From Psammoneis japonica (lineage: Eukaryota), in contig QPGO01000023.1 in assembly GCA_008632985.1 (NCBI GenBank), positions 186,001 to 215,732 of the forward strand: a stretch of DNA of 29,732 nucleotides, given 5' to 3'. The notes below the pieces were generated by a model, which was not told the DNA's origin, did no database searches, and was given only the letters and a program-made list of their open reading frames with translations. A program made the position numbers and the translations under genes. Below are positions 1-23,149 of this stretch, piece after piece (the stretch's first letter is position 1; the number at the start of each line of letters is the position of its first letter).

Positions 1-1
1 A

Positions 2-1288: not shown

Positions 1289-2118
1289 TTGGAGCAAGCA
1301 GTGCAAATGAGTTTGAATGAAACACAGGATGCAGTTCCCGCACAGGCTTAATTGCAGAATGATAGTCAGTCGGCAATTGCATCATGACTTTGATGAGTAG
1401 TTTGCGCTCCAGCTGCCTCTCGTTATCCGCCATCAACAAACCACCAGCGTAAGAAATCGCCTTCCGAATCATTTTGGCAGACAATTTTGGAAAGAGCAGA
1501 GCAAGAACGGCCTTTTTTTTTGCAAAGAAATGGCGCAAGTCAGCAGAGGAGAGCGTGTCAGCGCTAGGCTCAGCCACGCGTCATGGAACACTTCGTGCCG
1601 CACAATACCGGCGGATCTCCCATTTCTCAGATTGCCGTGGGGATCGTGGCATGGACTCGCATCGAATTTGGCGTAGAAAACCAATCGACGATGGTAATGT
1701 GGAATCAAGCGAAATAACGACAACAGAAGTAGTTCCAAAGACTCGACCGACGAGACCCACACTGGTGTATCCACACGCCCTTACTGATGTGGCCGTTTTG
1801 TTCACGAAATTGCATGTAACAAATCGCACAGTGTCAGATTGGCGCAGGGTGGTAAAGTGTACACATGGGGTGCCAGTCATGTCGGACAATGTGGTCACAT
1901 CCCTGATAATGCACAGAAGGTTGTACTACTACTTACTCTTATCTCTACTAGAGGGCTACCGGTATCAGGTATAGGCTCGCCTCACTACTGCATCGGTAGC
2001 GCCCTTTTTATTCGCGTAGGAGCATGAACGTGTCGGACTGTGCTACTACATACAAGAAAACATATCATACGTAACAAAATTTCTGTGGGTCCAACAATAG
2101 CTCAATCACCGTTAGTCG

Positions 2119-3317
2119 CTAACTCGCAATGAGCGGTTGTGAGCCACTTGTCTCATAAAATATTGCAGGCAAAGCAAACTCGACATCATTCTTGTTCACA
2201 CCGTCGGCAATCGCAAACAGTACTTTTTCTCTAACTTCGGCGTATTCGGAAGTACCGGGTCTGATGTCGAAACTACAGCTCACGCTAACTTGAATATGAT
2301 CAGCCTCGTACGTCGTTAGTCGCACGCTTGCCGAAAGCAGTTTGTCTTCACATACTGACTTGATTTCCTGTTCAATGTCCTTCAGTATCGTTGGTAGCTT
2401 GCCCAGATCTTGATATTTGAATCGTAAGGTTTGCTTGACCTGTGATTTGGTGACTTTGCTGTACATGCTAACGCGTTTGCCTGCGATTTGGCTATTCGGA
2501 ACTCGCATGGGAACGTGATCGCTTCCCAAGAGCTCCGTTTCAATCAAACCAATGCTCACAACGGTTCCTTCCGTCCCGTCTTGAACACGGATATACTCGC
2601 CCACTTCAATAGCATCCCAAGCACTCAACAACAGGCCACTCACAATCTGTTCCACCATGCCTTTGGAACCGAGACTAAACAAAATCGCGGACAAACCCGA
2701 GGCCGCAAAGAACGAATTCAAACCCCTACCGAGTGGGATGCCAAGAACGTGGAGCACATTGTATCCAGTCAAAACTCCAAGAGTCAAATCGCCCAGTCGG
2801 TCAAGCAATGCCACCTTGCCCATGCGAGTCCCATAAACCAGCTTGTTCAACATGAGGTGCTTGATAGCCGACAACGCCTTGCTGCCCCAAATCAACAAGC
2901 CGACATGAGGAGCCACTTCAAAGAGATCTTTGGTGAGGGGCAGTGCAGTCTGTAACTTGGGTATCAAAGTTTGTAAAAAGTCTACCAACAGAGTGATACC
3001 ATATGCCTTTGTGCCCAAGTCAATGCTTTCTGCGGCAGCGTACATGAGTGTCTGTTTGTAGCGGCCCTTTTCATACGTGAGGTGCGTGGAATTGAACAGT
3101 CGTTCGACTATTGGATCCATGATTATGGTCAGCACGTAGCGCCAAGTAAATACGGGGACTTCTCCAACAAGGTCTTTTTCACTATTGCTGTTTCCGCTGC
3201 GTCATGTTCTTCGCTAGGTGCTTCAAGTCGCAGCCTGCCGAGAAAAGCGCCCTGAACAGGAAGCACTTGTTGAAAGCTCGCGAGCGTCAGAAGCAAGAGA
3301 ACATAATATTTCTTCAT
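2119..3317 (-). CDS. MscS-family small-conductance mechanosensitive ion channel with N-terminal signal peptide (possible bipartite plastid presequence); one apparent frameshift near 3135-3180
   Basis: ORF 2119-3135 shows the MscS TM3/beta-domain pattern (GLSAILFSLGSKGMVEQIVSGLLL...IEVGEYI...EGTVVSIGLIETEL...VPNSQI). Upstream ATG at 3317 gives MKKYYVLLLLTLASFQQVLPVQGA-F, a hydrophobic signal peptide followed by Phe. Confidence 0.85.
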
Positions 3318-3626
3318 TGTACGAACAAATTCGTCAAGAGGCTTAAACGTTTGAACGGTGGGTACCAAACAAAGCTGGTAATGGTAACAATCGAGTCCGA
3401 CGTCGTGTCGCCGCTGGCAGGTTTCAGGTTGAAGATGCGGTGTGTACAGCACCTATCATGTCGGATCGCGATCTTTTTGCGGTGGTGATCTTGCGCGCTT
3501 CTGTTTTTGCGCGCGTAAGGTGTGTGGAATGCATGATGGCATTGGCTCTTTTGGGAGACAAAAGGTGCTTCAACAAAAGTTTCGCGCCCTTATCCTACTA
3601 TCTCTCCCTATGGGTTAGTTCTACAG

Positions 3627-6320
3627 CTAGCTAAAAGTCTTTGAAGGGTACGAGCAGATCAATGTTTCTTGGTCAATGAACCACCACCCGGATTCTTGAG
3701 CCCGCTTCTTTTTCCAGTCCTCACCCACTATCCAATTGTTGTGAGCACAGTACAGTGGTTTCTTGGTTGCGGCAGAAAATGAATCTTGCCCCAGACTGTA
3801 CGCATTGTCATTGTTCTCACCCACCAGCACGGCGCCATTTGGGAATACAAAGCGGTCCAAAAGCTCCACATGGAGTTCCGAAGCAGCGTCGCGTTCTTCG
3901 ACTCCTGTTGGCATTGTCTCTGGGTTTGGCGTTATTGTTGGCCGGTATATGCATGACGAGTAGTATCGTTCACTGGGGAACTTCTCACAAAGAATCTCAT
4001 CGAAGCTCGGCTGCTCGGTGACTTTAGAAAATTTTGCGTGCTTTTTTTTCGTTTTCGGGAGAAAATAGTGGTGGTATGAGAAATTATTGCGTTTTGGAAT
4101 GCCGAAACAAGCCTCTACTTACCTTGACAATGGCTCGAAACGCTGCCAAGACAATTTTACTGTGTGGAGCCACGTACAAACCCGAATTGAGTCGACACCG
4201 TCCCGCTGGATTTTCCGTTTGGATGGTGCTTACAGTTTCGTGTGGTTGTCCTTCTCTGCTGTCATTTTGCTTGTAGGGCGAATTGGATTGGATTGCCATG
4301 ATACTATTGCCAGTGACGGAGGTTTGGTTGCTCATGTAGCCCGCCAGAGCGTCAAAGGGATGGACAAACCACATGATATCAACGTCGCTCCAGATAACGG
4401 AATATCCCGCCTCGAGAACTTCGAGAGTCGCTCGACTCTTGAGTTTGGTCACCTTCTTGAGTCCCTCACTGCCATAAGTACCCCCAACTTGGGCCAATTT
4501 TGTACTATTCGTCTTGTCGGTAGCCTCAGCCGCAGAGGCAGCAGTCAAAAACATGGGCAAGCCCTGCCGTATACCCCATTTGTACACCTTTCTGTCCAAG
4601 GCGGCAATGACAAAGTGGTCATTCATGCCCACGCGTTCCAGAATGCACTTGAAATTCAACAGATGCTCACGGTATGCATAATTGACGGCCGTCAACAAGA
4701 CAAAGCCGTCGGATTGGCGAGCGTGCAATCGCAATTGTTCGTGCAACGTATACCTCCAATGCTTGGTGGCGAGCTCGGTCGCCTTGCTCTTCTCTTGGTG
4801 TCGTCGTCCACCAACGGGAGCTTGGCAAAATTCCAGGCATCGCGGCGTGTCATGTTGCGCACCCGTTCTTGCTCGGATGGATCGTCGCGGGCGGTAACCG
4901 GAGATCCAAAATAGTCGCGTTGTGCAATGTCCCATTGATGATTATTCTGGTCGCTACGAGTAGCATCCTTCTCCTTCACATCCATAACGTAATACGGACA
5001 ATTATCGGGTGTCCCGTGCTTGAGCATGTATTGCCGTGTCGTTGTTGCTGTTACAGACATAGAAGTATTGGTTTCTGCTTGCGGCTGTTGTTGAAAAATT
5101 GTGGTTGATGCGCCAAGTAGCGATTCAGGTACACGCCCGTCGTTCCAGACCACAAAGCATGCGTCCAGTCCGTGTAGGCGGAACCTTGTCCGCGCTTGTG
5201 TTCGTAGTGCAGCCATTCGGTCGGAACCGCACTGGCGTCAATGGCGGTGCGATGGGCCGTCAAAATGATCATGTCAAGCAACCAATTGTCGTACGAGGAG
5301 TACGGATAACGAAAGGGTGGAATACCAAAGGGCAGTAACTGCGATGATTGTTGTTGCTCATAGATAGTTGATGCAGTATTCCACGCCCAAAAATCGTAGC
5401 CACCTGTCGTGTGCCGTTGTCGTGTACCGTCGTCGTTAACATCCGTGCGCGTCGACACGACAAACCACCTCGAGTCACTCGTCTGTGTATTTCATGGACA
5501 ACAAACGGACTATAGTGCCCTGCCGCAGGACGTATCCGTGGCAAACGTGTCGACTGAAGTTGCTTCGTCAAGAATTGATGCATGGCTTGAAAATTGTTCA
5601 CGTGCAAATCCGAATTGACAAACGCCACAACGCCACCAATAGTAGTAGACGCCAACACTTGCATTTGCCGCAGCATTTGGTCCAAGCGCGGTAGGCCTTC
5701 GTCCGTGTGTGCAGCATACAGTGGGAATATCGGATCTGCACACACCTGTCGGGTGGCCGCATCATTGGTAAAGACGACGAGCTGTCCGCGACGGCGGCTG
5801 CTGCCGCTCAGTTCCTTGACCCATTTTGCAGCGTTTCGGGTAGTTGATTCGTGGTAAACGGCGGTGGCGCGGTGAAGACGAGTATGTGATTCTTGTTGTT
5901 GTTGTGTTTGTTCTGTAAAAAAGTCGTGACGCAAACGTCAGAGCGTCGATGCGGCACGGCCTTGGCGGCCGCTTTCAAGGCGCGTTCTTGCAAGTGTCGG
6001 CTGTATGGATGCAATTTATTTTTGAGAACGTCTTTTTGTTGCTGCCAGTGTTGCTTATGTAACAGTGCGGACTTGTCGATAGCTTTCTTGCGTTCGCGCT
6101 CGGTGTGCTTGTGGTGGCAATGGAAAACAATAGAAGAGGTGGCCGTCGCCACGAGCACAAAAATCAAAACCAATTGCTGCGTCGACAAGCACAAAAGCAC
6201 ATTTACACCAATATGTCGCACTTGAATCCGTCGTCGTTTGCGATGGTGTTGACGAAACGACGGTATTCTATTATTGTGCATAGAGCTCGGCCTCCTCGCT
6301 GCTGAAAACAGTTGCATCAT
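3627..6320 (-). CDS. Type II membrane glycosyltransferase: N-terminal GT-A-like domain plus C-terminal nucleotide-diphospho-sugar transferase (PF03407/GT77-like) domain; several frameshifts, one intron
   Basis: C-terminal domain: FVLLTAVNYAYREHLLNF...VIAALD...VTKLKSRATLEVLEAGYSVIWSDVDIMWF (DxD)...RLNSGLY...TEQPSFDEILC...LLDRFVFPNG...HNNWIVGEDWKKKR. N-terminal pieces: basic tail plus TM (VLIFVLVATATSSIVF), GLPRLDQM...VAFVNSDL, GGYDFWAWN...IPPFRYPYSSYDNWL. Confidence 0.78.
4041..4122 (-). other. Spliceosomal intron (82 nt) in the glycosyltransferase gene
   Basis: Minus strand AAG|GTAAGT...AAAG|CAC; removal joins AFRAIVK to HAKFSKVTEQPSFDEILC in frame with the ORF ending at 3627. Confidence 0.65.
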
Positions 6321-6659
6321 GACGTTGATCTCTAGTTGTCGACTCCAGTCGATGCATTTATAACGTAGAAAACAGCGTGGAACAGAGAAAAGGCATTCAC
6401 ACAAGAATGTGTGGTAAGAATAAAGAAGCACACGCCAGTTTGAGCAGAGACGCCCGACAAACTGCTCGATGGTGCGAAGGAGGATTGCGTGCGTGGTCGC
6501 TTTGAGGTGTCGCAGCAGTGATTCGGGCTCGTCTCACCCACTCTCTCTGGCATCAACAGCACCAACGTACTCAGGTGCGTTCAGAAAGCTCCAAGAAGTA
6601 TCGTGCCGGTAAGCTCAAAGCTGCTTATCATGGTGATCTTGGTTGTGTGTCGGTAGAAA

Positions 6660-6860
6660 AATGTGAACGTTATTTCAACGAAAATTTTTAAATTTCACAA
6701 TGCAAGCCTGTCAGCCATAGTTTCAAAGGCTGAAATAAAGTACCTACATATTTAAAATAATATATTATAGATATTTAGTAATATAATTGATTGGATTTTT
6801 CTTTTCCGTTGAGTTTACATTTATTCGTGAGTTTAGTTTTGTATAATTATTCTAACGAGG
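6660..6860. other. Short AT- and TpA-rich intergenic island upstream of the glycosyltransferase and abutting the eroded repeat block
   Basis: e.g. tttaaaataatatattatagatatttagtaatataattga; by eye the most AT-rich stretch in the window. Confidence 0.7.
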
Positions 6861-6905
6861 GTACAGCACCGTACCGTACGGCAGGCGGACAATGTACAGT
6901 AATGC

Positions 6906-8825
6906 ATGAGAACTAACTTGACAAAGATGTTTTTGGTGTGCGTGCTGCACAAAAAGAGATGCGGGGATAGATGGACATGCTGGACACGCTGGACACGCGT
7001 CACCATCTTGTCTGCAAAGTTGCCACTCTTGACAACAGCCAAGAGGGGGATCGCCAAGGATGACATGGTTTGTGGAGGCGAGCCTGCCACTCCTCCTTTT
7101 CACCACGCCGTTGCAGATGAGAGCTGCTGTGGCAAAGAAAAGCTGGTGCTGCTCTCCAGAGAACTCTGGAGGCAGTGGCAAAAGTTGCTGCACAGCTCTC
7201 TCACAGCTGCAGCTGACAAAACTGCAACAACTCGAGGACCATGAAGGGGCCACCTCTTTGCCACACCTCACATTTTCTTTTTGCTGAAAAGCTGTCTCTC
7301 CAGAGAACTCTGTGGAGGAGAGGGAAAAGTTGCTGCGTGGCTCCCACAGCTTCAGTTGACAAGAAGCAGTGGTGCAACCATGATGGGGTCACCTCTTCAC
7401 CACACCTTGCATTTTCTTTTTGCCGTCCCTCCAGACTTGTGTCATGTGGTCACCTGACCTGTGGCAACATCATCCAGGTGTGCAAAAATCTCTGAGTTTG
7501 GCAGAGTGGTGCATCATCGGACATTTTGAAAACCAGCGCATTGTTGCATTGCATCTGTGACAAGTTGCTTGTCATGCCTCTGGCATGTGGGTCAAGTTGA
7601 CCTGACAAGCAAGACCACCCCCTGCTTCCATTGCCCAGTGACAGGTCTCCTCCCTGTGCTGCACAACAGTGCAAGAAGCCTGCCGATGCCCCACCACCAC
7701 CACCACCACCACACAGCACACACACAAGAATTGTTTGAAACAACATTGCACACATTGGCAAATTGCACAAATGGGTGCATTTGCCTTTTCCCATTTGCGC
7801 ACATGCGAGTTCAGTTTTTTTTTTGCAATTTCAGCATTCAAACGAGGTGGACCACCCAGTGCAAAGGCCAGTGACATGAGACAAAAAGCAACAGCCACAA
7901 CCTCTGCAAAGAAGAAATCACACATCATGCTTGGAGCCAGCAGCCAATGAGAACTTGACAAAGATGTTTGGTCTGTGTGCAGCACAAGAGATGGATGTGG
8001 GGATGGACATGCATCACCAAGTCTTGTCTGCAAAGTTGCCTCTCTTGACAACAGCCATGAGGGGTGCTGTCAGAAAGGATGACATGGCTTTTGGAGCCTG
8101 TCACTTCTCCTTTTCTTCACACCATTGTCTGGATGAGAGCTGTGGCAAAAACAAATGCTCTCCACCCAGACAACTCTGGCTGGAGTGGCAAAAGTTGTTG
8201 TGCAGCTCTCTCACAACCAACTGCAGCTGGCAAACTGCAACAACAAGAGGACCATGAGAAAGGGGCGGGTTGCCTCTTTGTGCCACACCTTGCATTTTCC
8301 TTTTGCAAAAAAGCTGTCCCCAGAGAACTCTGGAGTGGGAAAAGTTGCTGTGCAGATCTCACAGTTTCAGTTGACAAGAAATGATGCAGCCATGATGGAG
8401 TCACCTCTTTGCCCGCCACATCTCCTGTTTTTTTTGTCATCTCCCAGCACCCCACCCCCCTGTGGGGGGAGGACAACCAATTGCTGCTGCTCATTCCACA
8501 TGCACAAGTGACCCATCTTGCTTTGCACTGAAACATGGGTGAGCCCGTTGTGTCATGTGGTCACCTGCGGCAACATCCAGGTGTGGTGCAAAAATCTGAG
8601 TTTCACAGAGTGTGTCATTGGACGTTTTGAAAACCAACACATTTTTGTTTTGCATCTGTGACAAGTTGCTTGCCATGCCTTGGGCAAGTGGGTGAAGAAG
8701 CTGACCTGACAAACAAGATCGCCCGCAATTGCCCAGTCATAACAAATCCCCCTGCAATGTGCAACAGTGCAACAAGAAGCTGGCTTTTGCATCCCCCACC
8801 CTGCTGCACAGCACTCACATGCACA
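6906..8825 (+). repeat. Degenerate tandem duplication (~1.04-kb period; copies ~6906-7730 and ~7948-8825) with an internal ~150-bp subrepeat
   Basis: Shared blocks include atgagaac(taac)ttgacaaagatgttt, tcttgtctgcaaagttgcc.ctcttgacaacagcca, gaggaccatga and gcatctgtgacaagttgcttg.catgcct. In copy 1, ctctccagagaactctg...aaaagttgctgc...cacctctt..ccacacct..cattttctttt occurs twice. Confidence 0.85.
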
Positions 8826-11800
8826 ATGGCAGCTGGTCCTTCACCTCTCCTTCTTTCCAGCCTCTGCAGCAACCAGGCAGCCCTTTTTCTCCACCGTCCA
8901 AATTTCCACCTCTGAGGCAGCAGCCACATTGTTGCCAGGCACTGCCTTGTTCCAGGGCAGCCCTGCCACAGTTGGTGCCAATGATGAAGACAATTGCTTT
9001 CTCCTGCTGAGCTCACAAGAAGCAGCAAAAGTGACAACTCTTCTCCAGCCAAATGTCCTGGAGATTTGAGGTGCTCAACCCAGCTGGTGTCTCTCAGCAT
9101 GGCCCTCCTCTTCCAAAAGGACAAGACTTGTTTCTTTTCCACCCCAGATGAGTTTCCTTTTGCCCTGCCAGCAGCATGTGATGCATCTGCACACTCTCAT
9201 GGCTTGCCTGCCAACAACTTGCAACCTGACTGTCTTGGTTGGTGTGGATGACTCTGTTGTCACTCAACTGATGAACAAAGAGCTTGCCCCCCCCCCAATT
9301 TTGCTCTGACAAGGCTGTTGCCAGCCATGGCCTGCAAGCTCTGCCACCTCTGCTGCTGTCTGTCTGAGGGTCCTTGCCTTGCTGGTTGCCATCGAATTGC
9401 CATTTTGCGTGCACAAATCATGGCATCCAGTTGGCACCCTCTGTCAAAAACCAAGCAAAACTGCCATTGACACACTTTTTGGCATTTTCCCAGCTCTCAA
9501 ACTGAAACCAGTCTGACTTTGCCACCTCATGTTGCAACAAAACAAAAAAGAACTTGCTGAACTCTATGGTTTCAGCACAGCACACAACAATCAAGCAACT
9601 TCAATTGCTGGAGCTTGCGCTTGCATTTCCAGGAAGCCAAGCACTCAACAAATTTGACAGCTTGTCACAAGCCCAACTGCCAAGAAAAATCCCAAAACTT
9701 TTGAGACCAACCCCAGGAGTCCAACAGCAAAGAAGAGCCAGAAGACAGCAGCAAGCAAGGCAGGCAGTGCTCATCAGAAGTCAAGCACAGTGTGGAAATC
9801 ACCCCTGTCATCACATTGATTTCAGCCATGCAGCCATTGCACTTGCAGAAGCACACAGTCTGGGACACTTTGTGCTTGTGTTTGCTTGGTTGAACAACTG
9901 GGAGACAAGCACAAGGAGAAATGTCATCATGAGACAGTGTGGCGCAACCCAAGAGGTGAGCAGTGTGCTGCTCACATCTCCTTGTCCTGAGCACTCCCAT
10001 GTTGTTGCCAACAGAAAGGGTTTCCCCTGTGCACTGGTGCAAAACATCAACAAAACAAAACCCAAAGTCTGCATTTAAAGTGCTGCTGTGCTTCCGCCCT
10101 GGTGCAACTCTGGCAACAAGCTGACCCACACCCCAAGCACATCATGTGATGCAGCAGGGATGTGTGACAATTGGTCAAAATTGATGCCAAAAGGCTGTGG
10201 TGCCTGCCAGAAACAGCTGACAACAACAAAAACAGGGCCAGCACATCAAACAACAAGACTTCAAAAGGAAAATGCCAAATGCTTCAATGGGGCCTTCTTC
10301 CTGGGATTGGGTCTGGCAGCAAAGGTGAGACAGGCAGTCTGGAAGAGTTTCAACATGAGAAGGAATGGGACACAAATTGAGCACCAACTCACACTGAACT
10401 GGGCTCAAACTCATGCTTCTGGGAGCAGCAACAATGGAGGATTGTTCACAGCATGGAGCAGAGAACATAAATGGACAAAGAAAAAGGGGAGTTGTTGATG
10501 CCGGAGAGGCATGGACCAAGAGCAGTTGGCAGTTTTGGCTGGTCAGTCATCCAAAATGACTTTTGAGACACACAGAAAATGTGCTGACTTGTGTTGACAC
10601 TTGTCGGCACAAGGAAGAATGGCCAATGCATGCTGAGTTGGTTTCATCTTCAAACTTCTGAAAACAGCAACAATGGAAGATCATTCACCATGTGACACAG
10701 GAAACTTAGAACAGACAATGGGGAGAAGGGGGGTCATTGACACTTGAGAGGTGTGGAGAGAGAGAGCAATTGGCAGTTTGATGCATTGTCCATCTGAAAT
10801 GACTTGCAGAACATGCAGAATTTGTGCTGAAACTTGTGCAGAAACTTTGCACATGAGAACAGAAAATGCCCAAAAGAATGCTGAGCAATCAACCAAAAGG
10901 GCTTGATGCCAATTGTTTTCCACTGCATGAGATTGCCAATGATCACAGAACAAAGGCATGTCAACAAAAGAACAGGTCTTAACAGGCAGGCAAGAGCCAT
11001 CATTTCACCATCAGAGAAACATGGCATCTGCGCCAGAGCTTGCACAGAAATGCATGCAGAGGGTGTGGCGCTGAAACCAAGGCAGAATTGTGGCACAAAA
11101 CATCAACAGTTCTCTGCACCATTTGTGTGTTCCCTTGAGAAATGGAGGAGCTTGCACATCTTGGCTCTCTTGCTCCCACTGACAGGTCAGTTCAGAGGGA
11201 GTGATTGCTGCAGTGGGGAAGATGCTGCTGTCATTCCATGCATTGTGCAGTTGCTGTGGGGGCAGGGAATTCACAAGGAAACAAACAAGCAAGACTTGCA
11301 GAGCGGAGCACAGCAACATCCATTTTTCATGCCATTGTCAATCATGGAGAAAGATCCAATGGCTGGCTCACATCCAAGTTTCAATTGCTGCTGCTGCACG
11401 CTGTGATCAACATTGTTTTCCTTTCTTTTGGTTGCTCAACAAACTCTGATGCCTCTGCCTGGGTTGGTCATCATCTCTGACACAAGCAAGGAAAGGAGAG
11501 GCAGAATTCATCCAACAGCTTTCAACCCACATGTGCTGGTTTCTTCTTTAGATCTGGCCCACAATCATCTCTGCAAGAGGGAAAATGTCAACTGTCCATG
11601 TCAATGATGGCAACTTCAGGGCAGCCTGTGGCACCACCCTCAGTTCTGTGTGGCTGGACAGCTGCTCTGCAAAAGGCACTTTGAGTGCATGCAGCTTGGA
11701 GCCCACAACAAGACTTGCAGCTCACGTGGATCCCAACCCACTGGCATCATGTTGTGCACTGAGCTCAACTTTCAGGTTGTGTGAGCAAGTTCAGAGGTCT

Positions 11801-12100
11801 TTCAAATTTTTGCGCAAAATGGCAGAACGTGGCACAACCTCACATGAGCAAAGCATGAAGTCAACAATGACCTCTGGCTCCGTCCAATGATGATGATGCA
11901 TGGTTTCATGAAGGCCAATGATCCAGATCAAAGAAGCATGGGTTCCTGGAAATGATTCCAATCATTCAGATTGGGTGGCACTCGCATGGGTTGGAGGAAG
12001 AGGCACTTGGGCTTGGGGCACTTGTGACGTGCGATTGCAGTTGTTGGAAACTCACACCGCACAATGGTTTGAGGGTTGTCCTTTGGCTGGGAGAGATGGA
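6970..12100. other. Heavily eroded repeat/TE-derived domain, depleted of both TpA and CpG; family not recognisable
   Basis: About 7 TpA found by eye in ~5 kb, few CpG, strong TG/CA excess; all ORFs are short, Cys/His/Trp/Gln-rich and nearly Tyr-free. Confidence 0.75.
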
Positions 12101-12513
12101 TTCTCATGAAATCATGGCTTGAACGGCATGTGGACAGTGAGAACGCATTTCGATTGTCCGGAAAAGATGTTGAGAGCCAACATTAGAGTGCATCGTAAAC
12201 AGCTTTCTAAAACTTCTCCGAATTCATTTTGTCCAGCCCATTTGTTTCTCTTCCACCAAACATTGACAGCTCCATCAGTGCTGGGAATGATCTTGTTTAC
12301 AACGTAGTCAACCGTTTCATTTGCCGACGCGTTGGGCTTTTCACACAGACTGTTTGGTCCCATCCACCCACCTGTGGCGTGCAAGTGACATCCTGGCACC
12401 ATTGTTTCCGTGTACATTGCTGTAAGAGCTCTTGCATCGTCATGTTGAGACGCTTCCATGAAAATGTTTTGAATCACACCGGACTTGACCAACCGTGACG
12501 CTCCGCGAAACAC

Positions 12514-12618
12514 CTGTTGGAAAATGACAGAAGCGGGGAATGGCAAGACAACAACATGAGCACACTGTGAGATGGCATGAGCAACTCGAGAAAAACAAAA
12601 CCAAGATGTAACTCGCAC
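12514..12618 (-). other. Spliceosomal intron (105 nt) in the FkbM gene
   Basis: Minus strand CAG|GTGCGAGT...TTTTCCAACAG|GTG; splicing gives DVEGFEPQVFRGA, matching the usual FkbM spacing. Confidence 0.75.
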
Positions 12619-12642
12619 CTGCGGCTCAAAGCCTTCTACATC

Positions 12643-12647
12643 CACCT
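12643..12647 (+). repeat. Left 5-bp target-site duplication CACCT
   Basis: CACCT directly before the 5' LTR; identical copy at 20535-20539. Confidence 0.95.
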
Positions 12648-12958
12648 TGACAGGGATCCCACATGACCCTTTTACATTGGAACCTCATGTTCGAAGATGG
12701 CACATACATTCAGTCGGGTTTGTGACTGAAATTCACTGATCTTTCGGAGTGTTTCAACAACCTGTCGGAATCCATCCGTTCTGACAGCCATGTCGATTCT
12801 GAGACCAGCTCAGAATCTCTCACAACTTCTAGACAAAGCATTGTCGCAAGGCACTGTTTCTAGACCAGGCTCTAGCTTGCTCTCTCCTGTCAGTGCACGG
12901 ACTTGATCACCCAAGACACTCTCAGGCGAGCACTCAGTTCTTGCCCATTTTCCTGTCA
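12648..12958 (+). repeat. 5' LTR (311 bp)
   Basis: Begins TGACAGGGATCCC, ends CTGTCA; ~93% identical to 20225-20534 by manual alignment. Confidence 0.96.
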
Positions 12959-15900
12959 TGGTTGCAACACTTCCGGTTCGGTCCAACACGACCACTTCTT
13001 TCAAGCCGAGTGCTGCTCATGCGTCTCGCAATGCTTCCTCTCCCAAGCCGTCTTCGCACGCACTTTCTTCGCATGAAGTTTTTACAGTCCACGGACGCTC
13101 CGTCGATGACGTCCCCATGGCCAACCCTCGTGACCGTTGTCACAATGTTGATGCTGGCTCCATTGTCCAGCATGCTGGCATGTACACCACACGTCGTCGT
13201 CGTTCTCGTCGCGTGACCCAGGGTGCACACCACCCTGCCACCCGTTGCATCAAGCGCACATCTGCGCCACGCTCCAAGCCGCCTTCCAAGCCCTCGCAGC
13301 AGGCCCCCAGGCGCAACAAGGTCTCCACCCGTCGCTCTCAACGTGCCGTCAACCGCACGCTCTCTAGCTCCACCGACACTGTGGATTTTGAGCGCCGTGT
13401 TCGCTCATCTGTTCGTGGCCTTCGCAACGGCAAACCCGTCACTTTGCCCAGGACCCTTCATGCTGTTTCGCAGCCGACTCGCAAGCGCACCAAGACCGCT
13501 CGCCGTCGTACCCAACGCGCTCTTCGTCGCTCTGTTGCTTCGGTCAAACGCACCCCGGCTCCTGCTCTGCCTGCACCTGACGAGCTCCGTCTCTCTCGTG
13601 TCAAAGCTGACGTCCGCGCCGCTCTCAGCGAACGTCTTGCTCAGGCCCAGGCCCGCGTTGATCGTCTCCAACTCGAGACTGAAAAGCTCTACTCCAACTT
13701 TCGCGTTGTCAAGCACTCTCGTGCTCGACTTGACACGTTGTTGGATCAAGCCACTCACGACGAATCCGAGTTTTTCAACCCCGAACACAATCTCTGTGAC
13801 CGCGCGATCCGCGACCAATTGACAGATGTCGACACATCCCTTGACATTTTACATGTCGATTTGGACACTTTGCACAACCGCATTCCGAAACCTTCCGCAC
13901 GCGACAACCCCGCGCCCTCTGCTCACTTTTCTCGGCCGCGCCCCCGAAAACGTCGAACCAAATCACGCTCGCGGAAATCACTCCGGATGACTCCCAACCA
14001 GGAACACCATGCCCTATGATCCCACCGTCTCCGCCACGGCATGTCCCGCTCCAAACCCTTTTATCATCCAGACGCTGATTTTTTTTTTCAGCCTGAAACA
14101 AGAAAGTGTCAAGACAGTGGCCCGCAGCAGCCTCCGCACCCCTCTTCGGATCACTTCATCTACGTCACCGTTGAAACCGTACACTCCGACGATGAGCACG
14201 GTGCATCAGCTCAAGGGGGTCTCAACCCATTGCTGACGACCCGCCACCCACTCCCACTGTCACTGCACCACTGGGGTCCCCTGAGGAATTCCCCCCGCTT
14301 TCATCTCCAACGGATCAAGCCACTCCTGCTCTCTCCCATGTCGACCCGTCATCAACCTCCGCGACACCGCTTTTTGATGTTGTCACTCCCATGTTGAACG
14401 AAATGGATGAAGCACTTGACAAGGCTCTTGCCTCTCCTGCTCACACTCCTGCAGTCGACTCACCTTCTCCAGCTTCGCCCGACACCTCTGACGCGTCTGA
14501 CCCATCCGTCGACCAAGACATCAACGTCCAGGTTCGTCTCGTCACCTTCGAGGCTCTCTTCGACACCCAACAAGCTCTTGCACCGTTTTTCCATCGTGAG
14601 AATGAACGTGCCGTTGAGCTTCGCGACACTGTCGATTCGGCAAAAACGTCTTTCGAGCGCCTCCTTCGTTGACACCCTGCTTGCGAAGCAAGCACTCTAG
14701 CACTTCGTCGTTTTCAGGACATGATGCGCGAAGCCGAGTCCCTTTACTTGGAACTCATGTTCCACCTTGCCCTCACCCCACGACCACACCCCGCTTGCCC
14801 GTCCGCCCACCACTCATCAGTCGACGACACTGTTTTCTCTCATGTTGCCAGCGAGCGCACCTCGGAATCCTTGTCGAATTCACTGATGAAGCATGCATCC
14901 TGTGCAAATTTGCGCACTCTGAAGCACCATCAGAATCCGCACACACGACGACAAAAATTTCATGCATTCTTGAATGACTTGCGTGGGACCTTCGCATCAT
15001 TTCCGGAATTCAATGGCACACTCAATGATTTTCCCTCTGTCCCTCTCCGCCCACTTCCAGACCATGCCGACAGCGCCCTCCATGCTCTCCTCTGGATGCA
15101 TGTGGACGCAACGCACCAATCTGACATTTCTGACCTTGGATCGCGTTCTGGCAAACTTGCTCTCGAAGAACTCCAGCTACGCTGTGCGCCCATCACTCAG
15201 GAACACAGCAACCACTGCTCAAACGACTGCCTCCAAGTCTTTCGCAACTCGGACGAGTCCGCCAGCAGCTTTATCCAACGGTTTGAACGAAAACTCCGGA
15301 GCCACAAGAACGCCGGCCTTCCCGTCAAGACTGATGCGGATGTCAGTGCCCATTTTCTCGGCCAAATGGGCAGCCATCCCCGCTGCGACGCCACCATCAA
15401 GCAATTCGAATCCGAATTTCGCACTGCTGCTCGTCTCTCCTCTGCCACCGCTCCTCGATTTAAGGACATCCGGCAAACGTTTTATGACATCGACGAGCAG
15501 CATCACAACCAACAGCATCGTGATCGGCTCTCGCATGGCTCCCGCTCCCGCTCTCACAACAACCATGCTCACCTTGCTACCGTCAAACGCGCTCCTCGGA
15601 ATGCACAACGACAGCAACAGCAGCACCGTTGCCCAAACCAACCTAACGCAACCGAGATCTGCAACCACTGTGGAAAACGCAACCACAATGCCTCCGTCTG
15701 TCGCTCTCGGCTCCGTGATCTGAAGCAGGGCACACCCAAAGATCAACCTGCTGCCAAACCTCCTCGCGACCTCAGCGAAGTCACGTGCCATCACTGCAAA
15801 AAAAAGGGGCACCTTCGTCCCAACTGTCCCGAACTCGCCAAGGACTCCAAACAGACCGCTCTCGCAGCCACTGCACCTGCCATGCACTGCCGCGCAAAGG

Positions 15901-16340
15901 CACCTCCCCCGAAGGACCAAATCATTTTCTGCGCTGCTCGAGCTGACATGGAGGATGCTCACTCTTGTTGTCCCTCCTCTTCCGACTCTATCCCAACCCT
16001 GGCACCACGCCACGTCTCCTTTGATGACGACTCATCTGCCTGCTGCTCCACGAGTGACTCGATCGCATCTTCCTCTGCTCATGGAACTGTGCCTGCCATC
16101 ACTCTCCAGGACCTCCTCGATGACACCTCTTCGATTGATGGCAACGACACTCTCTCCGCCAACTTGCACTCCACTGGTCCTCCGCCCCTTGAACATCATG
16201 ATTGCGACTCCAGCACGGAATCATCATCCACTGTGCCATCTTTGGTCCGTCGCCCATGCGAGCCGGATGACACCACGGCCTGCCCTTTTGATGAACCGCC
16301 CCCCCGGGAACTCTCCCGAGGAATCACCAGTCTGCTTTGA
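12958..16340 (+). pseudogene. gag: Copia gag region: Arg-rich/coiled-coil N-terminal part, gag core and two CCHC zinc knuckles; frameshifted
   Basis: ORF 14721-16340 contains CNHCGKRNHNASVC and CHHCKKKGHLRPNC (CX2CX4HX4C) and ESASSFIQRFE; upstream ORF 12958-14019 is basic with a heptad-like stretch. Confidence 0.8.
12959..12970 (+). promoter_or_regulatory. Putative primer-binding site TGGTTGCAACAC
   Basis: TGG (complement of tRNA CCA) immediately after the 5' LTR; cognate tRNA not identified. Confidence 0.55.
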
Positions 16341-19300
16341 CTTCCACAACGCTTTCACCACGGCATCTTACGCATCCGGGCACACTGCAATCTCTGACGA
16401 TGACATCGACTCCGTCACATCTGATCTCAGCTGTGACTCTGTCGATGCGGTCCACACCATCCCCCGTTTCTCATGCAACACCGCTGACTGTCACGTTCAA
16501 ATTGCCTGCATGGCCGACGATCCCAACCAGTGCCGACCTCACCAACCACCCCCGCGACTCCGACCTCACGGACATCAGCAGTTGGTTTGTCAACTCTGGT
16601 GCCTCTTCCCATTTCGTTCGTCATGACTCACTTGACAACAGCACCTCCTGTCACGTCCCTGTTGTTGTTGCAGACGGCACCACCGTTCATGCCACGAAAG
16701 TTGGATCCGTCACCCTCCGTTTTCAAGACGACCAAGGACATCCGGTCAACCTTGTTCTCGATCGCATCTGTTGCATCCCCGGCCTCAACCGGAACTTTTT
16801 TTCGGCACCCTCCTTCACGGCCAATGAACTCTTCAATGTCCGAATCACTGCCAATGTCACGACACTTGACTTTGGCGACGGACACACATTCAGCTTCCCG
16901 ATTCTCCATCACAGGCGCTCCTGTCACGATGTCACAGCTGCCACAGAACCGGAACCCACTTCCGACCTCCCGTTGACGGAAGCAACCGACGCCCAAGGCT
17001 CATCAAAACCAACGACACATGCAATCGACCTTGACCTTGCAGGTCGCCGTTTCGGTTGTCGCTCCTCTCAGAGCCTTTTGGCGGGCACAGTTGGCAAAGT
17101 TTGGCACGACTGCCACATTGCCCCCGGGACTGACGACTGTCTCGACAACGCGCGCATCGCCATCTCCCGAAAGCGCAACCGCGTTAAGTGTGACCCGACT
17201 GAACCACCACACACATTTTCACGTGTGTTTGTGGACACAATTCCCAACCCTCACACAGTCGCACTCACCCCAAAAACGTCTTTTCCCTGCCACCTCTTTT
17301 TGGCAACCCACAAAGGACACTGCTGCAGTGTTCATGGCCTCGAGAGCCCATCATCTGGCAACATCATCGCCGCCTTTAAATCATGGATGACCGAAGCACA
17401 ATCCCAGGGACAAATCCAAGACATAAACTTCATCCGCGCGGACTCCGCAACATGTTTTCTGTCCTCCGAATTTCTTGCCTTTGGTGAAGACAATGGAATC
17501 AAGGTCGAAGTTGCCGCTCCACGTCACCAGGAGCAGAACGGGGTCGCGGAACGCATGTGGCAAGTCGCAAGCCGGATGATTCGTTGCCTCCTTGTCAACG
17601 CACGACTCTTGGCACACTTCTACCACCATGCATTTGTCCATGCTGTCGCCATCCTGAACGTTCTCCCAGCCAAAGGCACGCGGCTCCCTGATGGCTCCCT
17701 GGCTACACCGCACTGCCATGCATTCAACAGACTTCCAAAGATTGGCAATTTTCGGGTCTTTGGATGTCCCGTCACTTTTGACAGATGCCAACCTCTCAAC
17801 CCGGCAACTCGTTGCCCGACCACCACCCAACAACAGATTCAACGTCGATCTCGTGGCATTCATGTGGGTTTCGCACCAAACCAGGCTGGCCACCTCATCT
17901 GTGTTCCTGAGGGCATCGGCACCAAGAATCTGATTGTAGCGTGTGACGCTGTCTTCGACGAACTTTTGAATCATCACTCGTGCACGACCACGTCCCCTTC
18001 TCTGGCGCACTCCTGATCCGGAACATCTCCAACGATGCCTCCGGCCTCAAGACATGCACCGAGAATCCGGTGGATGAACACACGGCACTGTTCAAGATTT
18101 CCTTGACGTTGACTCACCCCCTCATTCCTCCACTCTCACCGAAGCGCCTCCGGAATCCGATGAATCCGATTCAGCGCCACCATCCCCTGCACCCGCTACA
18201 ACCGGTCTCAGACGATCCACTCGCACCAACGCTGGCCTCCGCACTTCCGTGCGCTTCGCGGACGAGGAGCAACTCTACGCCATAACCTCCTCCACTCCCC
18301 CAGTCAATCTCCTCGAACAAACTCTCTTCGACGACTCGCTCGCCATGGAATCTGCGTGCAGCGCCTCCGTCGAATCTCCTTGGCCTGACTGCAATTGGTG
18401 CAAATGCCCGGATCCTTTGCAACAGGCCTTGGAAGCCGTCCAGGCCACCTCTTCAATTCCCATTGATGACCACTTGCCCGTTCCCCGCTCTTTTCGAGCC
18501 ATCCTCAGACAACCTCCTGCGATTCGCGATGCCTGGCTTCGTGCCGTCCGATCTGAGCTCAAGAACCTCATCGTGGACAATGAAACTTTTGCTCTTCATG
18601 AATGTCCCCGTCCAGACGATGAGATCATTGGCACCACACTTGCTCTGCGTGCCAAGGAGAAATCCGACGGCTCTCTGGAGAAACTCAAGGCTCGACACTG
18701 TGCGCGCGGCGACATGCAACGCAAATCAGCCGATGATGACAATTGGTCACCAAACGCATCCTCTCGTGCCATCAAGCTCTTCCTGGCTTTTGCAGCAAAG
18801 GCCAAACGACACGTCAAGAATGGTGATTTCGTCGGTGCTTGCCTTCAAGCCCCCGCTCGCGGCCGCCCATTTGTTCGATTCGACCCGATTCTGAAGCAAC
18901 ATTTTCCTGAATTTGCTGAACATTTTGGTGTGCCCCTCCGTCTCAAGAAAGGCATGTGCGGGACCATCCGCAGCGGTCTTTGGTGGTCAACCGAGCTCTC
19001 CGAATTTTTGCTTGCCCAAGGACACACCAATTCCAAGGCAGATCCCACCTTCTTTGCCAAGCACTTCCCCGACGGCTCACATCTCAAGCTCATTTTCTAC
19101 ACGGATGATGTCATCTACTTTGGGTCTCACGACAGAGTCGAAAGGACTTGAGAATCTCACACAATCCAGGTGCAACATCACATTCAACGGTGACGTCACC
19201 TGGTTCTTGCAGATGCGCATTCACCGATGTTCCGACGGCTCCTTCTCTCTCGACCAACATCGACATGTGCGCAATCTCCTCAAGCGGTTCCTCACTCCCA

Positions 19301-20187
19301 CCTCGCCTTGGGGCAGCCCCAGCTTTCAGGATGCCCCAGCCCCCGTTGATTGTGTGTGCTCCAAAGCGAATCAACCCAAGGACACCGCCGAATCCAAGCA
19401 AATCGCGAACAAGTGTCCTGGTCTCCATTTTCGATCCGCTGTCTGCTCCATCCTTTATCTCGCCTGCAACACTCGCGCTGACATTCTCTGGATCACCTGC
19501 AAACTTGCAAAGGCTTGCACCAACCCTGGCATGAAGGACTTTGATGCTCTCGTCCACCTTTTTGGCCATCTCCGCAAACATCAAGACCTCGCCATCAAAT
19601 TTTATTCTGATCCCACCGCGAGCCCTGTTCACGCGATTTGCGAAGCTCACAACATCAGTCATTCTGAATTTGTGGTCTTCACCGATGCCAGCTGGCAGGA
19701 TTGTCCGGACACCGCCAAGTCAACCGTTGGATTTATGGTCTACTTCAATGGGGCAATGGTGGAAGCCAATTCCACTGTCCCAACCCCTGTCGCAATGTCC
19801 ACTGCTGAATCCGAGTGGATGGGAGCCTGCACTGGCGCTGTGGCTGTCGCTCACCTGCGCATGTTGGCCTGCGACTTCACCTTCCTTGGCACTCGCCACT
19901 GCTCCATTGACTCCCAGCGACTGTCCGCCACTCCCACAATCCTCATGTTGGACAACCAAGCCGCAGCCCAAATGGCCCAAAACGACCAACAAACTCAACG
20001 AACCCGACACATTGAGCGACGCTTCCAACATGTCCGCGAAGGGCAGCGACTCGGTCATCACTTGCTTGTTTGGGTTCCCGCGGAAAGTCAATTGGCGGAC
20101 TGCCTCACCAAAACTCAATGTGCAGACAAAATTTGGGTCATGGTCGACCGTGTCCTGTGGCGCCCACCTGCACACATGCTGTCATGA
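16337..20187 (+). pseudogene. pol: Copia pol: protease, integrase, reverse transcriptase, RNase H; frameshifted and hypermutated
   Basis: PR WFVNSGASSH (catalytic D->N at 16592); INT FVDT...IRADSA...HQEQNGVAERM; RT KLKARHCARGD...DFVGACLQA...LKKGMCG...FYTDDV (19098-19109); RNaseH FTDASW...STAESE...DNQAA...RTRHIERRFQHVRE...QLADCLTK. Confidence 0.95.
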
Positions 20188-20216
20188 GCCCCTTCTCATC
20201 TTCCCTCATTCGGTTC

Positions 20217-20224
20217 AAGGGGGG
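20217..20224 (+). promoter_or_regulatory. Polypurine tract AAGGGGGG
   Basis: Directly abuts the 3' LTR. Confidence 0.85.
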
Positions 20225-20534
20225 TGACAGGGATCCCACATGACCCTTTTACATTGGAACCTCATGTTCGAAGACAGTGCATGTGTTCAGTCGGGTTTGT
20301 GACTGAAATTCACTGATCTTTCGGAGTGTTTCAACAACCTGTCGGAATCCATCCGTTCTGACAGCCATGTCGATTCTGAGACTAGCTCAGAATCTCTCAC
20401 AACTTCTAGACAAAGCATCATTGCAAGGTGCTGTTTCTAGATTAGGCTCTAGCTCACTCTCTCCTGTCAGTGCACGGACTTGATCACCCAAGACACTCTC
20501 AGGCGAGTGCCCAGTTCTTACCCATTTACTGTCA
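20225..20534 (+). repeat. 3' LTR (310 bp)
   Basis: TGACAGGGATCCC...CTGTCA, followed by CACCT. Confidence 0.96.
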
Positions 20535-20539
20535 CACCT
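20535..20539 (+). repeat. Right 5-bp target-site duplication CACCT
   Basis: Matches 12643-12647. Confidence 0.95.
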
Positions 20540-21410
20540 TGAGAACAGGAATCAACGGTCGATTCTTGAACCAGCCTCTGTCTTCCGCAAATTGATCCAG
20601 TGGAAAAACCTGAACCGTGGCGGTTGCATTCTTTGCTCGTCCCTTTCTGACAAAACTCCCAGTTCCAGGATTTTTCAAATCACCCACGCATAGATCCAAT
20701 GCATCTTCTCTTGCGCCAACACCGTCATTGTAAAAGTTGATGCTGCTCTTTCCTTGATCAGCACTCTCATGCAGCAACGACCGCTCTTCTGCGCCACTGC
20801 TCCATTCGTTAAATTTGATGGACTGGCAAATGCGAATGCCATTCACAATGTTGGGTTCAAACACATCAACATGGCACCCCAAGGATGCAGAGAGGTGAGA
20901 AAACCATCCAATGTTCCCACCAACATCCAAGACACGAGCGTTTGGATGTTTCCAAGTCTCGTCCTCTAGCAAGACTTCTCGGAACGCTTCCGTCAACACC
21001 TCCTCGTAGTGCTGTCCGTGCTTAAAAATGCAAAACCGCAGTCCATCATGTTCTTTGTTGTGCAACGACACATAGAATGGTGGATCCAATGCAGTCAATC
21101 GAAGGAAGATTTGACCATCGTTGGGGTCTTTTATGGGACAGTCATCGCGATGAATGTTGCTCAGCAAATTCTTGCAATCAAAGGGCTTGACACCAGCAAA
21201 GTGTTGCACAATAGACAGTGTCTGCTCCAGGTATCTATCATTGTAATTCTCTGGAAAAGAAACGGTTTTCCAACTTACTAGCACAGTGATGAAGGCACCC
21301 AAAGCAACAACGCAAGAAAAAGAAATTGAGTCGACGGCGGCTTCGCCGGTTGGCGATTCCTCGTTAGGAACATTTTTTGTTTGATTGAACACTGTAGCTT
21401 TTTCTTGCAT
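20535..21410 (-). pseudogene. FkbM-family SAM-dependent methyltransferase, 5' part (type II membrane anchor), disrupted by the copia element
   Basis: ATG 21410; TM VVALGAFITVLVSW; SAM motif RVLDVGGNIGWFS...VDVFEPN; ...VFPLDQF...IPVLKV running into the LTR. Confidence 0.9.
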
Positions 21411-21660
21411 TAACAAAGATTCTGATGAGAATCATTCCAATGTTTTCGAGCTATGGGTGAATTGTAAAGCTTTGGCTGCCCTGAATGGATGCGGTGAAAA
21501 TGTGCTCTAATAGAGAGTTGCTCATTGTGTTTTATTCCCGCTGCCCAATACCCGCTATCATGGAATCGCTAAAAATGGCGCGCGCCCTATTTTTTATCGC
21601 TGAAAGCCTGCGCTGACACGACGACCTGAATGATGTGATGTTGTCGTGCTCTTCTTCACG

Positions 21661-22873
21661 ATGAAGTTTTCTACAAAAAGACGACGAAGGAGGCGACTCC
21701 TACAAATTTTGTTGTTCTTCTTGACAGATTTCTTTTTCTTATATCATTTCCTTCACCCCGCAAGCTTCCGATCCGAGTCGACAATTACAGAACCAAGAAT
21801 TCCTTCGTTGTTCGATGAGCTGTTCGATGCTCCAAATAATAACACCATGTCGAAACTGAATGTGACACTTGCAACGACCATATACCACTTAGGATGGGAC
21901 AACCATGTGGGTCGGACCAATAATCATCTTACTACAATCCTACACGCTCTCGACTTGGCCTTTGATCTGCATGGTGACATTGCGAATGACGGTTCCAACT
22001 GCATTTTCGCTGTGGCTGTTTCTGGTTGGGCGTATGAGACGCTCAGAAAGTTTTTCTTTGACGAAAATACAGCAGAAGACTGGGATCTCAGGTTGGAACA
22101 AACGGTCCCCATTATTCACTTTGATCGAATCAATCAATTGCCCGGAGAAAAAAGGCTCGTCAAGCTTGGAGTCCATCCTACTACTTTTTACTACACAAGA
22201 GACCATCTCAGCAAAGCGTCAGTTGATCGCATTGAGAAACGAAGACGATTGATTCTGGGACAGCTGTTTTGCCATGTGTCCAAACGAAATCTTGAGACGG
22301 TCAACCTCCTCAAGGCACACTTGGACAAAATTACATATGCAAAGGAAGATGAGCATCTTCGGGGCAAGTACATGGTGGTTCATTCTCGATGGCTGGAGGG
22401 ACAATGTTATTGGCGTGTCGGGGACAAGCTGCCTCTGGATGAATGCGATATGAAACCAAGCTACATTAAAGATATTCTTCGTTCATTGGGCCTGCTCGGG
22501 CGCATACCAATCGTCGTCATCAGTGACATGCAGAGGCCCGAGATACTGCGAGTGCCCTCAAAAATGATGAAGAGATTGGTCGTCACGTGATTATCCCGGC
22601 TTTGACCCTCGATTCAGCACGACCAATTCGTCAATTTCGGTAGAGAGCGACATGATGATTGCCATAAAGAGTGACATTTTTGTTGGCACAAGAGCGAGTA
22701 GCATGGCAGTCATGGTTGGTCTGGTTCGGGTACTGTCAGGAGCAGACCCAAACAGCAATTATTTGTACGTCACACGGAATGATGATGAAAATTTGGAAGT
22801 TTGTGGCGAATGCATCTTTTTTTGCAATGGCAAGAGGTCAGCCATATGCGGCGCGAGGGAAGTATATCCATAG
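21661..22873 (+). CDS. Type II membrane glycosyltransferase, GDP-fucose O-fucosyltransferase-like (GT-B); one apparent frameshift near 22550-22620
   Basis: Basic tail plus TM (KRRRRRRLLQILLFFLTDFFFLYHFL), GRTNNHL, YMVVHSRWLEGQC, IVVISD, then DMMIAIKSDIFVGTRASSMA (D..I...SD.FVGT..SS motif of fucosyltransferase-type GTs). Confidence 0.7.
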
Positions 22874-23149
22874 ATGCATGTCATCCTCGCTCTCACTGTG
22901 TCGAGGCGAGATCCGCCATAGACCGTGTAGAGCTTAATTGGTCGGATTCAGTCCCACTTGAAAGACAAGAAGTGCACCCATGTTGTGTCGTATCTAACTC
23001 TATTAGTAAATGAAAACTATTTTCTCAACAAGTGGCCAGATCACAAAGGGAACTCTCGAAAGAACAAGCTGCTGAATTGGGGCGAGGTCTTGATGCTTGA
23101 TGATGCTCCGACCGTGGCACCTTATCACAAGGGTCATGATCCGGACTGA

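Follow-up and report, generated by a model that had tools for sequence, protein, structure and literature searches.

The locus analysed here raises the question of what process acted on a pair of long terminal repeats (LTRs) in which TG in one copy repeatedly faces CA in the other, on which nucleic acid it acted and when. Positions are given for the window, i.e. the whole stretch of 29,732 nucleotides that was analysed.

Element, LTRs and insertion site

Positions 12648–20534 (+) of the window are one complete Ty1/copia LTR retrotransposon, bounded by a direct repeat (12648–12958, 311 nt, versus 20225–20534, 310 nt) of 92.6% identity, and both LTR copies carry the TG...CA termini expected of copia LTRs. 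The original prediction had placed the interval of interest at 12698..12958; its end is correct, but 12698 is the first difference between the copies and the LTR itself begins at 12648. The features of the element are:

12643..12647 (+), target-site duplication, left copy CACCT, abutting the 5′ LTR
12648..12958 (+), 5′ LTR, 311 nt, 92.6% identity to the 3′ LTR
12698..12708 (+), three reciprocal TG/CA sites clustered with one TA/TG site inside the 5′ LTR
12907..14019 (+), Arg/Ser-rich open frame 5′ of gag, no Pfam match
12959..12970 (+), putative primer-binding site, first bases TGG, adjoining the 5′ LTR, assigned by eye
14673..16340 (+), gag-like frame with a weak CCHC zinc knuckle (zf-CCHC_5, 16.2 bits, cut-off 27)
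16295..18016 (+), protease-barrel/integrase/SH3 frame (Pol_BBD, 36.6 bits)
18078..19151 (+), first part of the reverse transcriptase (RVT_2, 44.7 bits), frame disrupted near 19100
18895..20187 (+), frame with the reverse transcriptase end and RNase H (14 homologues with HSPs, at most 50% identical)
20217..20224 (+), putative polypurine tract AAGGGGGG, adjoining the 3′ LTR, assigned by eye
20225..20534 (+), 3′ LTR, 310 nt, repeat of the 5′ LTR
20535..20539 (+), target-site duplication, right copy CACCT, abutting the 3′ LTR

Pol_BBD and SH3_retrovirus were matched by Pfam within 16337–18016 and RVT_2 within 18249–19151, so that the integrase region lies 5′ of an RVT_2-type reverse transcriptase, which is the Ty1/copia order. 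The knuckle residues C, H and C of the gag-like frame were conserved in 7–8 of 8 homologues, and the protease-barrel/integrase/SH3 frame had 3746 relatives with a top identity of 51%. The coding frames of the element are disrupted, and in contigs of a public run single-base indels, including those at 19141 and 19147, separate the element from other copies. Inside the window no further copy was found by blastn of the element against the window, which returned the LTR pair only. The LTR pattern, written with YR degeneracy, gave 0 matches in metagenome contigs and 0 in viral contigs, no relative of the integrase protein was found among viral contigs, and 0 matches were obtained in an Rfam scan of the window. 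At 7.9 kb the element is long for copia, and its sense strand is strongly C-rich (GC skew about -0.3). The Arg/Ser-rich frame between the 5′ LTR and gag encodes 370 aa and had no family match.

Contigs of one public run fuse position 12642 to position 20535 (3 in X1, 1 in X2), and the flank therefore occurs elsewhere without the element. The flanks themselves (12000–12647 and 20535–21000) are moderately depleted in TpA and are present as several diverged copies in the public run, from which it follows that the element was inserted into another repeat. In the public-run contigs, flanks 12227–12642 and 20535–20996 are fused without the element at ~85% identity, and the flank copies have a 105-base gap at 12511–12615. 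Two minus-strand open frames (20532–21431 and 12112–12684) meet the insertion point from either side; together with a weak Methyltransf_23 match (16.7 bits), this suggests that a gene of a different element may have been interrupted by the copia insertion.

LTR differences and the ancestral dinucleotide

Apart from a single 1-base indel, the LTR alignment showed 22 mismatches, all but one of them transitions. Fourteen mismatches made up seven reciprocal TG/CA dinucleotides (12698-99, 12701-02, 12707-08, 12842-43, 12852-53, 12878-79 and 12931-32), four were sites with TA facing TG or CA (12706, 12806, 12866 and 12943), one was CG facing TG (12845), two were lone transitions (12865 and 12934) and one was a C/A mismatch adjoining the indel (12952); 18 of the 22 lay within TG/CA/TA pairs. 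The original prediction had counted about 22 differences with seven reciprocal TG/CA sites and four sites of TA versus TG/CA, together about 18 mismatches, all of which was reproduced by realignment. The remainder had been described as three C/T transitions and an indel; the count holds, but one of the three (12845) sits in a CpG. Common to both LTRs were 8 CpG and 4 TpA.

Mismatches were concentrated inside YpR dinucleotides, with 20 at 142 aligned positions versus 2 at the other 168 (Fisher p = 7e-6). When 21 transitions were placed at random 200,000 times, reciprocal sites arose with a mean of 0.24 and a maximum of 4, and seven were never reached. Reciprocal sites are also found beyond the LTRs, in two other repeat pairs of the window with 10 and 9 sites. 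The changes are A:T to G:C transitions at TpA-type dinucleotides, in both orientations.

Two self-complementary dinucleotides come into question as ancestors of the reciprocal sites. Under methyl-CpG decay the sites would have been CpG at insertion and would later have suffered deamination of one strand in one LTR and of the other strand in its partner, and two independent CpG events do yield TG/CA pairs. Base composition and codon content were therefore compared for both dinucleotides. TpA was lost from the element interior (O/E 0.10), TG and CA were enriched inside the element, and CpG stood at O/E 0.99; the values for two host open reading frames (ORFs) were 0.54–0.59 for TA and 0.95–1.04 for CG. 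Tyr content of the element frames was 0.2–0.8%, compared with 1.9–6.1% in the 34 homologues checked, and the gag and integrase frames contained 3.5–4.4% Cys and 6–7% His. Conserved columns were defined by a residue shared by at least 60% of at least 8 homologues. At the 11 conserved Tyr columns the element had Tyr at 2, His at 5, Cys at 2, Phe at 1 and Trp at 1, whereas 212 of 269 other conserved columns were retained (Tyr versus the rest, p = 5e-5); the 19 conserved Arg columns had Arg at 16 (all CGN), His at 2 and Asn at 1. A second residue comparison was confined to the closest relatives (at least 40% identical). Here 43 Tyr positions of the relatives corresponded in the element to Tyr (5), Cys (12), His (9), Phe (10) and others (7), and 64 Arg positions to Arg (40), Gln (5), His (3) and others (16); the difference between Tyr>Cys/His and Arg>Cys/His/Gln/Trp was again significant (p = 5e-5). 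Replacement of Tyr by Cys or His while Arg CGN was retained indicates extensive conversion of TAY to TGY and CAY, with CGN codons mostly preserved.

A loss-rate model was then set against the LTR counts. The loss p(TA) was put at ~0.8 per copy, as obtained from the Tyr codons and from a rho of 0.10 versus ~0.57 in host genes. At p(TA) = 0.8, the 8 visible TA sites correspond to ~22 ancestral TpA and to 7.1 expected reciprocal sites, and 7 were observed. For CpG, the 9 visible sites correspond to 0.06 expected reciprocal sites at p(CG) = 0.11 (2/18 Arg codons) and to 0.63 at p(CG) = 0.35. By a rough likelihood with homogeneous rates, all-TA was favoured over all-CG by 8.1 log units. The single-rate model under-predicted the TpA common to both LTRs (0.9 expected, 4 observed), and this excess requires resistant contexts such as CTAG. 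The choice of TA rather than CG as ancestor, made in the original prediction, is supported by the O/E of 0.10 versus 0.99, by the loss of Tyr, by the retention of Arg CGN and by the loss-rate model, and at 11 LTR sites the polarity of change most probably runs from TA, as judged from the coding sequence and composition of the element itself.

Several observations are nevertheless of the kind that methyl-CpG decay would leave. LTR site 12845 is CG versus TG, the neighbouring blocks at 7001–12000 and 23001–29000 are CpG-poor (rho 0.06–0.25), an old repeat pair (6969–7724 / 7989–8819) has CG facing another dinucleotide at 13 sites, TA facing another at 1 and 10 reciprocal sites, and one site of a tandem array reads CA in 14 units, TG in 11, CG in 3 and TA in 0. 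At 16 interior sites every aligned contig differs from the window, and the contigs read CG at 6 of them (window TG or CA), TA at 2 and are reciprocal at 1; this tally rests on the 40 of 1853 variant rows that were listed, all outside the LTRs, and favours sites where the copies agree. Agreement among copies of this kind is to be expected of CpG that decays slowly, but not of TpA lost differently by each copy. A two-class CpG population, with some sites saturated and some protected, would fit the LTR counts if these are taken by themselves. Against CpG decay stand the interior CpG O/E of 0.99, the CGN codons still present at 16 of the 19 conserved Arg columns and the LTRs themselves, in which 8 CpG are intact in both copies and 1 is half-decayed, although a rate that gives 7 double events predicts many more single ones. 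The reciprocal sites expected from CpG (0.06 or 0.63, as above) fall far from seven, and the loss of Tyr codons is left unexplained. CpG decay as the source of the reciprocal sites is accordingly regarded as very unlikely, and TpA is preferred as their ancestor.

Timing, strand and targeting of the TpA changes

Loss of TpA in each LTR equals the loss in the interior, which means that nearly all of it took place after insertion. Among the seven reciprocal sites, the 5′ LTR has TG in 3 cases and CA in 4, and interior replacements of Tyr by Cys (sense A>G, 12) and by His (T>C, 9) are balanced (p = 0.66). With both orientations in each LTR and a balanced interior, editing of one strand of RNA or cDNA is excluded and the substrate was chromosomal DNA. 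Both ratios bear out the original prediction of a DNA-level process after insertion, and they support the view that the two LTRs would have been struck independently, on either strand, once the element was in place.

Editing before integration was considered in two forms, namely an ADAR-like activity on element RNA and a deaminase acting on single-stranded reverse-transcription intermediates. ADAR prefers a 5′ U (cited in 10.64898/2026.01.13.699255), and by the standard reverse-transcription scheme, the two LTRs could in principle come to differ if editing followed the copying of the LTR template. RNA editing, however, would give sense A>G only, copied into both LTRs, a pattern that was not encountered here, and editing of plus strong-stop or minus-strand DNA predicts a single orientation per LTR, with TG in the 5′ and CA in the 3′ copy, as opposed to the mixture of 3 and 4 found in the 5′ LTR. 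It also predicts neither the balance of Tyr>Cys and Tyr>His in the interior nor the equal depletion of window DNA that does not transpose. In Bigelowiella natans, moreover, comparable changes arise in culture in single-copy integrated DNA (10.64898/2026.01.13.699255). Taken together, these points leave editing before integration with next to no probability, and chromosomal DNA is retained as the substrate.

LTR divergence was 7.1% over all positions (Jukes-Cantor 0.075) versus 1.2% (2/168) outside YpR, a 6.2-fold inflation of LTR age. The element's age is overestimated by LTR-divergence dating, as had been predicted, and LTR dating in genomes with TpA hypermutation will overstate age in general, about six-fold in the present case. 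TpA changes accumulate at roughly a hundred times the rate of other substitutions, and well ahead of CpG decay.

Dinucleotide rho was computed in 1-kb windows along the whole sequence, with the following ranges by region:

1–7000: TA 0.55–0.70, CG 0.9–1.3
7001–12000: TA 0–0.06, CG 0.06–0.20
element: TA 0.02–0.21, CG about 1 (0.67–1.28)
21001–23000: TA 0.47, CG 0.9–1.0
23001–29000: TA 0.01–0.11, CG 0.07–0.25

Only the element and other repetitive sequences show the TpA change; host genes 5–10 kb away have normal TpA levels. The boundaries of the doubly depleted blocks, at ~7000 and ~23250, are sharp to within 250 bases. The host MscS-type gene at 2119–3201 (-) has TpA O/E 0.59 and CpG O/E 0.95 and retains its conserved Tyr. 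As a baseline, 17 metagenome loci of distant MscS relatives (at most 63% identical) were examined, and no 1-kb window among them had rho(TA) below 0.40. Top identity of the two host ORFs was at most 84% among the proteins searched, the relatives being metagenome, Logan or MMETSP proteins, and the nearest atlas clusters are eukaryotic, labelled Chlorophyta and Haptophyta.

The MscS-type channel gene is a single uninterrupted frame; at one position it has Tyr, in contrast to His in 7 of 8 aligned relatives. Its N-terminal part does not resemble that of the relatives, which may point to a paralogous copy or to an absent first exon.

The blocks at 7000–12000 and 23250–28750 contain 0–4 TpA per kb, with TG and CA at 1.7–1.9 of expectation, and their long open frames had no Pfam match. 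Both are probably silenced repeats or foreign inserts of considerable age, which have experienced TpA hypermutation as well as CpG decay. A single deaminase removing both TpA and CpG from these blocks was considered and found unnecessary, as the element's own rate of CpG decay suffices, the repeats there being about ten times more diverged outside YpR than the LTRs. The tandem array (26149–27320) is built of 31–33-nt units in a 161-nt higher-order repeat and lies within a 358-aa open frame.

Across all six phases of the window, 82 stop-free frames of at least 110 aa were counted. Loss of TAA and TAG creates a surplus of stop-free frames, so that open frames are poor evidence for genes here, and in such genomes long open frames in all six phases are an artefact of this loss.

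An error of reading was also weighed, in which TpA of silenced DNA would carry a modified base that is taken for G, the assembler then picking TG or CA at random. Reciprocal sites in identical LTRs and a near-total apparent loss of TpA would both result. Only 60% of the window's sampled 31-mers were present in the one public run that contains the stretch, and at 15392-93 the window has CA where 4 of 4 aligned contigs have TG. On the other hand, host genes retain TpA and the conserved Tyr, which would require a modification limited to repeats. Nor is any modified DNA base known to pair stably as a different base at such levels. One contig was identical to 12231–12676, and 243 of 887 aligned contigs were at least 99% alike to the window, in a run that may be non-independent of the assembly. 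The changes in B. natans, for their part, are heritable, line-specific Illumina calls (10.64898/2026.01.13.699255). Only a slim chance is thus left to a reading artefact, and the substitutions are treated below as real mutations of chromosomal TpA.

Proposed explanation, known systems and surviving TpA

It is considered likely that a Ty1/copia element was inserted once and that, in the chromosome, its TpA then became TpG or CpA through events that struck the two LTRs separately and fell on either strand. Beyond A:T to G:C change at TpA on chromosomal DNA, the following is what we infer of the mechanism. A single insertion would have made the 5-bp duplication, and about 80% of the TpA of the resident element would then have been turned into TpG or CpA by an enzyme-driven editing directed at DNA that is silent, foreign or repeated, presumably the same kind of process as the de novo TpA-only hypermutation of B. 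natans lines. The likeliest chemistry would be deamination of the adenine of 5′-TA-3′ to hypoxanthine, which would be copied as G at the next replication. TpA being self-complementary, an event on the top strand would give TG and one on the bottom strand CA, and reciprocal TG/CA pairs between the LTRs are the consequence.

The full-text literature on TpA depletion or dinucleotides together with hypermutation yielded one relevant item, a bioRxiv preprint by Mettrop et al. (10.64898/2026.01.13.699255). According to this preprint, 231 of 302 new nuclear mutations in B. natans mutation-accumulation lines fell in two integrated viral regions, 230 of these, each at TpA, were A>G or T>C, and the TpA rate was ~6e-7 per site per generation; TpA-depleted coding sequences (CDS) were enriched in reverse-transcriptase and DDE-endonuclease domains, and an ADAT2-like DNA adenine deaminase was proposed. 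The process seen here is alike in that only TpA is affected, giving TpG or CpA according to strand through A:T to G:C transitions, and in that it is confined to foreign or silent DNA with neighbours at normal rates, CDS with reverse-transcriptase domains being depleted in both. It differs in that the preprint describes new mutations in culture, in giant-virus and virophage inserts that still have much TpA (rho 0.45), whereas here the scar lies in a copia element, is close to saturation (rho 0.10) and is timed by an LTR pair. Neither CpG nor LTR nor retrotransposon is mentioned in the main text of the preprint (10.64898/2026.01.13.699255). The process as such is thus already contained in that source, and what is new relative to it is the timing by an LTR pair, the approach to saturation, the lag of CpG decay behind TpA loss and the survival of CTAG. 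The element is regarded as a further instance of this newly described targeted DNA hypermutation, in a retrotransposon and possibly in another organism.

Among better-known systems, repeat-induced point mutation (RIP) of fungi is likewise a post-insertion, DNA-level hypermutation of repeats that acts at one dinucleotide on both strands and wrecks transposon coding capacity. RIP, however, changes C to T mostly at CpA, makes TpA and lowers GC, whereas here TpA is destroyed and GC rises; fungal RIP was rejected as an explanation, since TpA was lost and not gained and TG and CA are enriched in the element. Methyl-CpG decay shares the conversion of a self-complementary dinucleotide to TG or CA, with reciprocal pairs between copies, but its source is CpG, which is intact in the element (O/E 0.99), and the source here is TpA. 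ADAR and APOBEC editing before integration likewise produces deaminase-type transitions clustered in retroelements, with the 5′ U preference of ADAR; there, one strand of RNA or cDNA is edited and the changes are common to both LTRs, whereas here both strands were changed and the LTRs separately.

Chemically, the same outcome could be reached from the other base of the pair. If T at TpA were hydroxylated to 5-hydroxymethyluracil (5-hmU) or 5-formyluracil and mispaired with G, T>C would be driven much as C>T is by 5-methylcytosine at CpG, and at a palindromic TpA a T>C change on one strand is an A>G change on the other, so that the two cannot be separated by sequence. In dinoflagellates, 5-hmU has a preference for TpA. 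It is reported to be enriched on repeats in the dinoflagellate Breviolum minutum (PMC11071213) and to be tied to transposon silencing (PMC11572971). Weighing against this chemistry, the base-resolution 5-hmU map of B. minutum was reported without a sequence motif (PMC11071213), and the authors of the B. natans preprint prefer the ADAT2-like adenine deaminase, on the grounds of the presence of a candidate only (10.64898/2026.01.13.699255). A modified thymine is judged unlikely. The idea of dinoflagellate 5-hmU in particular was set aside, as nothing ties the window to dinoflagellates and B. minutum shows no motif; modified thymine was retained as a chemical rival to adenine deamination.

Chromosomal rewriting of TpA in invading DNA was reported only in 2026, from one alga and for viral inserts. 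Adenine deamination or not, the present element provides independent natural-history evidence that a retrotransposon is among the targets, that the rewriting follows integration and affects both strands, that it can run almost to completion and that it outpaces CpG decay. A wider reading, which we stop short of calling probable, would be that a RIP-like genome defence by TpA editing operates in a second eukaryote, beyond one chlorarachniophyte and its viral inserts, in which retrotransposons would lose nearly all TpA, and with it Tyr codons and TAA/TAG stops, within ~1% neutral divergence, CTAG would be spared, and the slower decay of CpG would in time add to the loss and leave kilobase blocks with neither TpA nor CpG.

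Surviving TpA were examined for context. The element retains 48 TpA, of which 9 lie in CTAG, whereas CTAG accounts for 8 of 364 TpA in normal regions of the window (p = 2e-5); 3 of the 4 TpA common to both LTRs are CTAG. Editing may thus favour TpA flanked by A or T and leave CTAG, and a context protected in this way may offer a handle on the specificity of the enzyme. ATAT, ATAC/GTAT and ATAG/CTAT are almost absent among the surviving TpA of the element.
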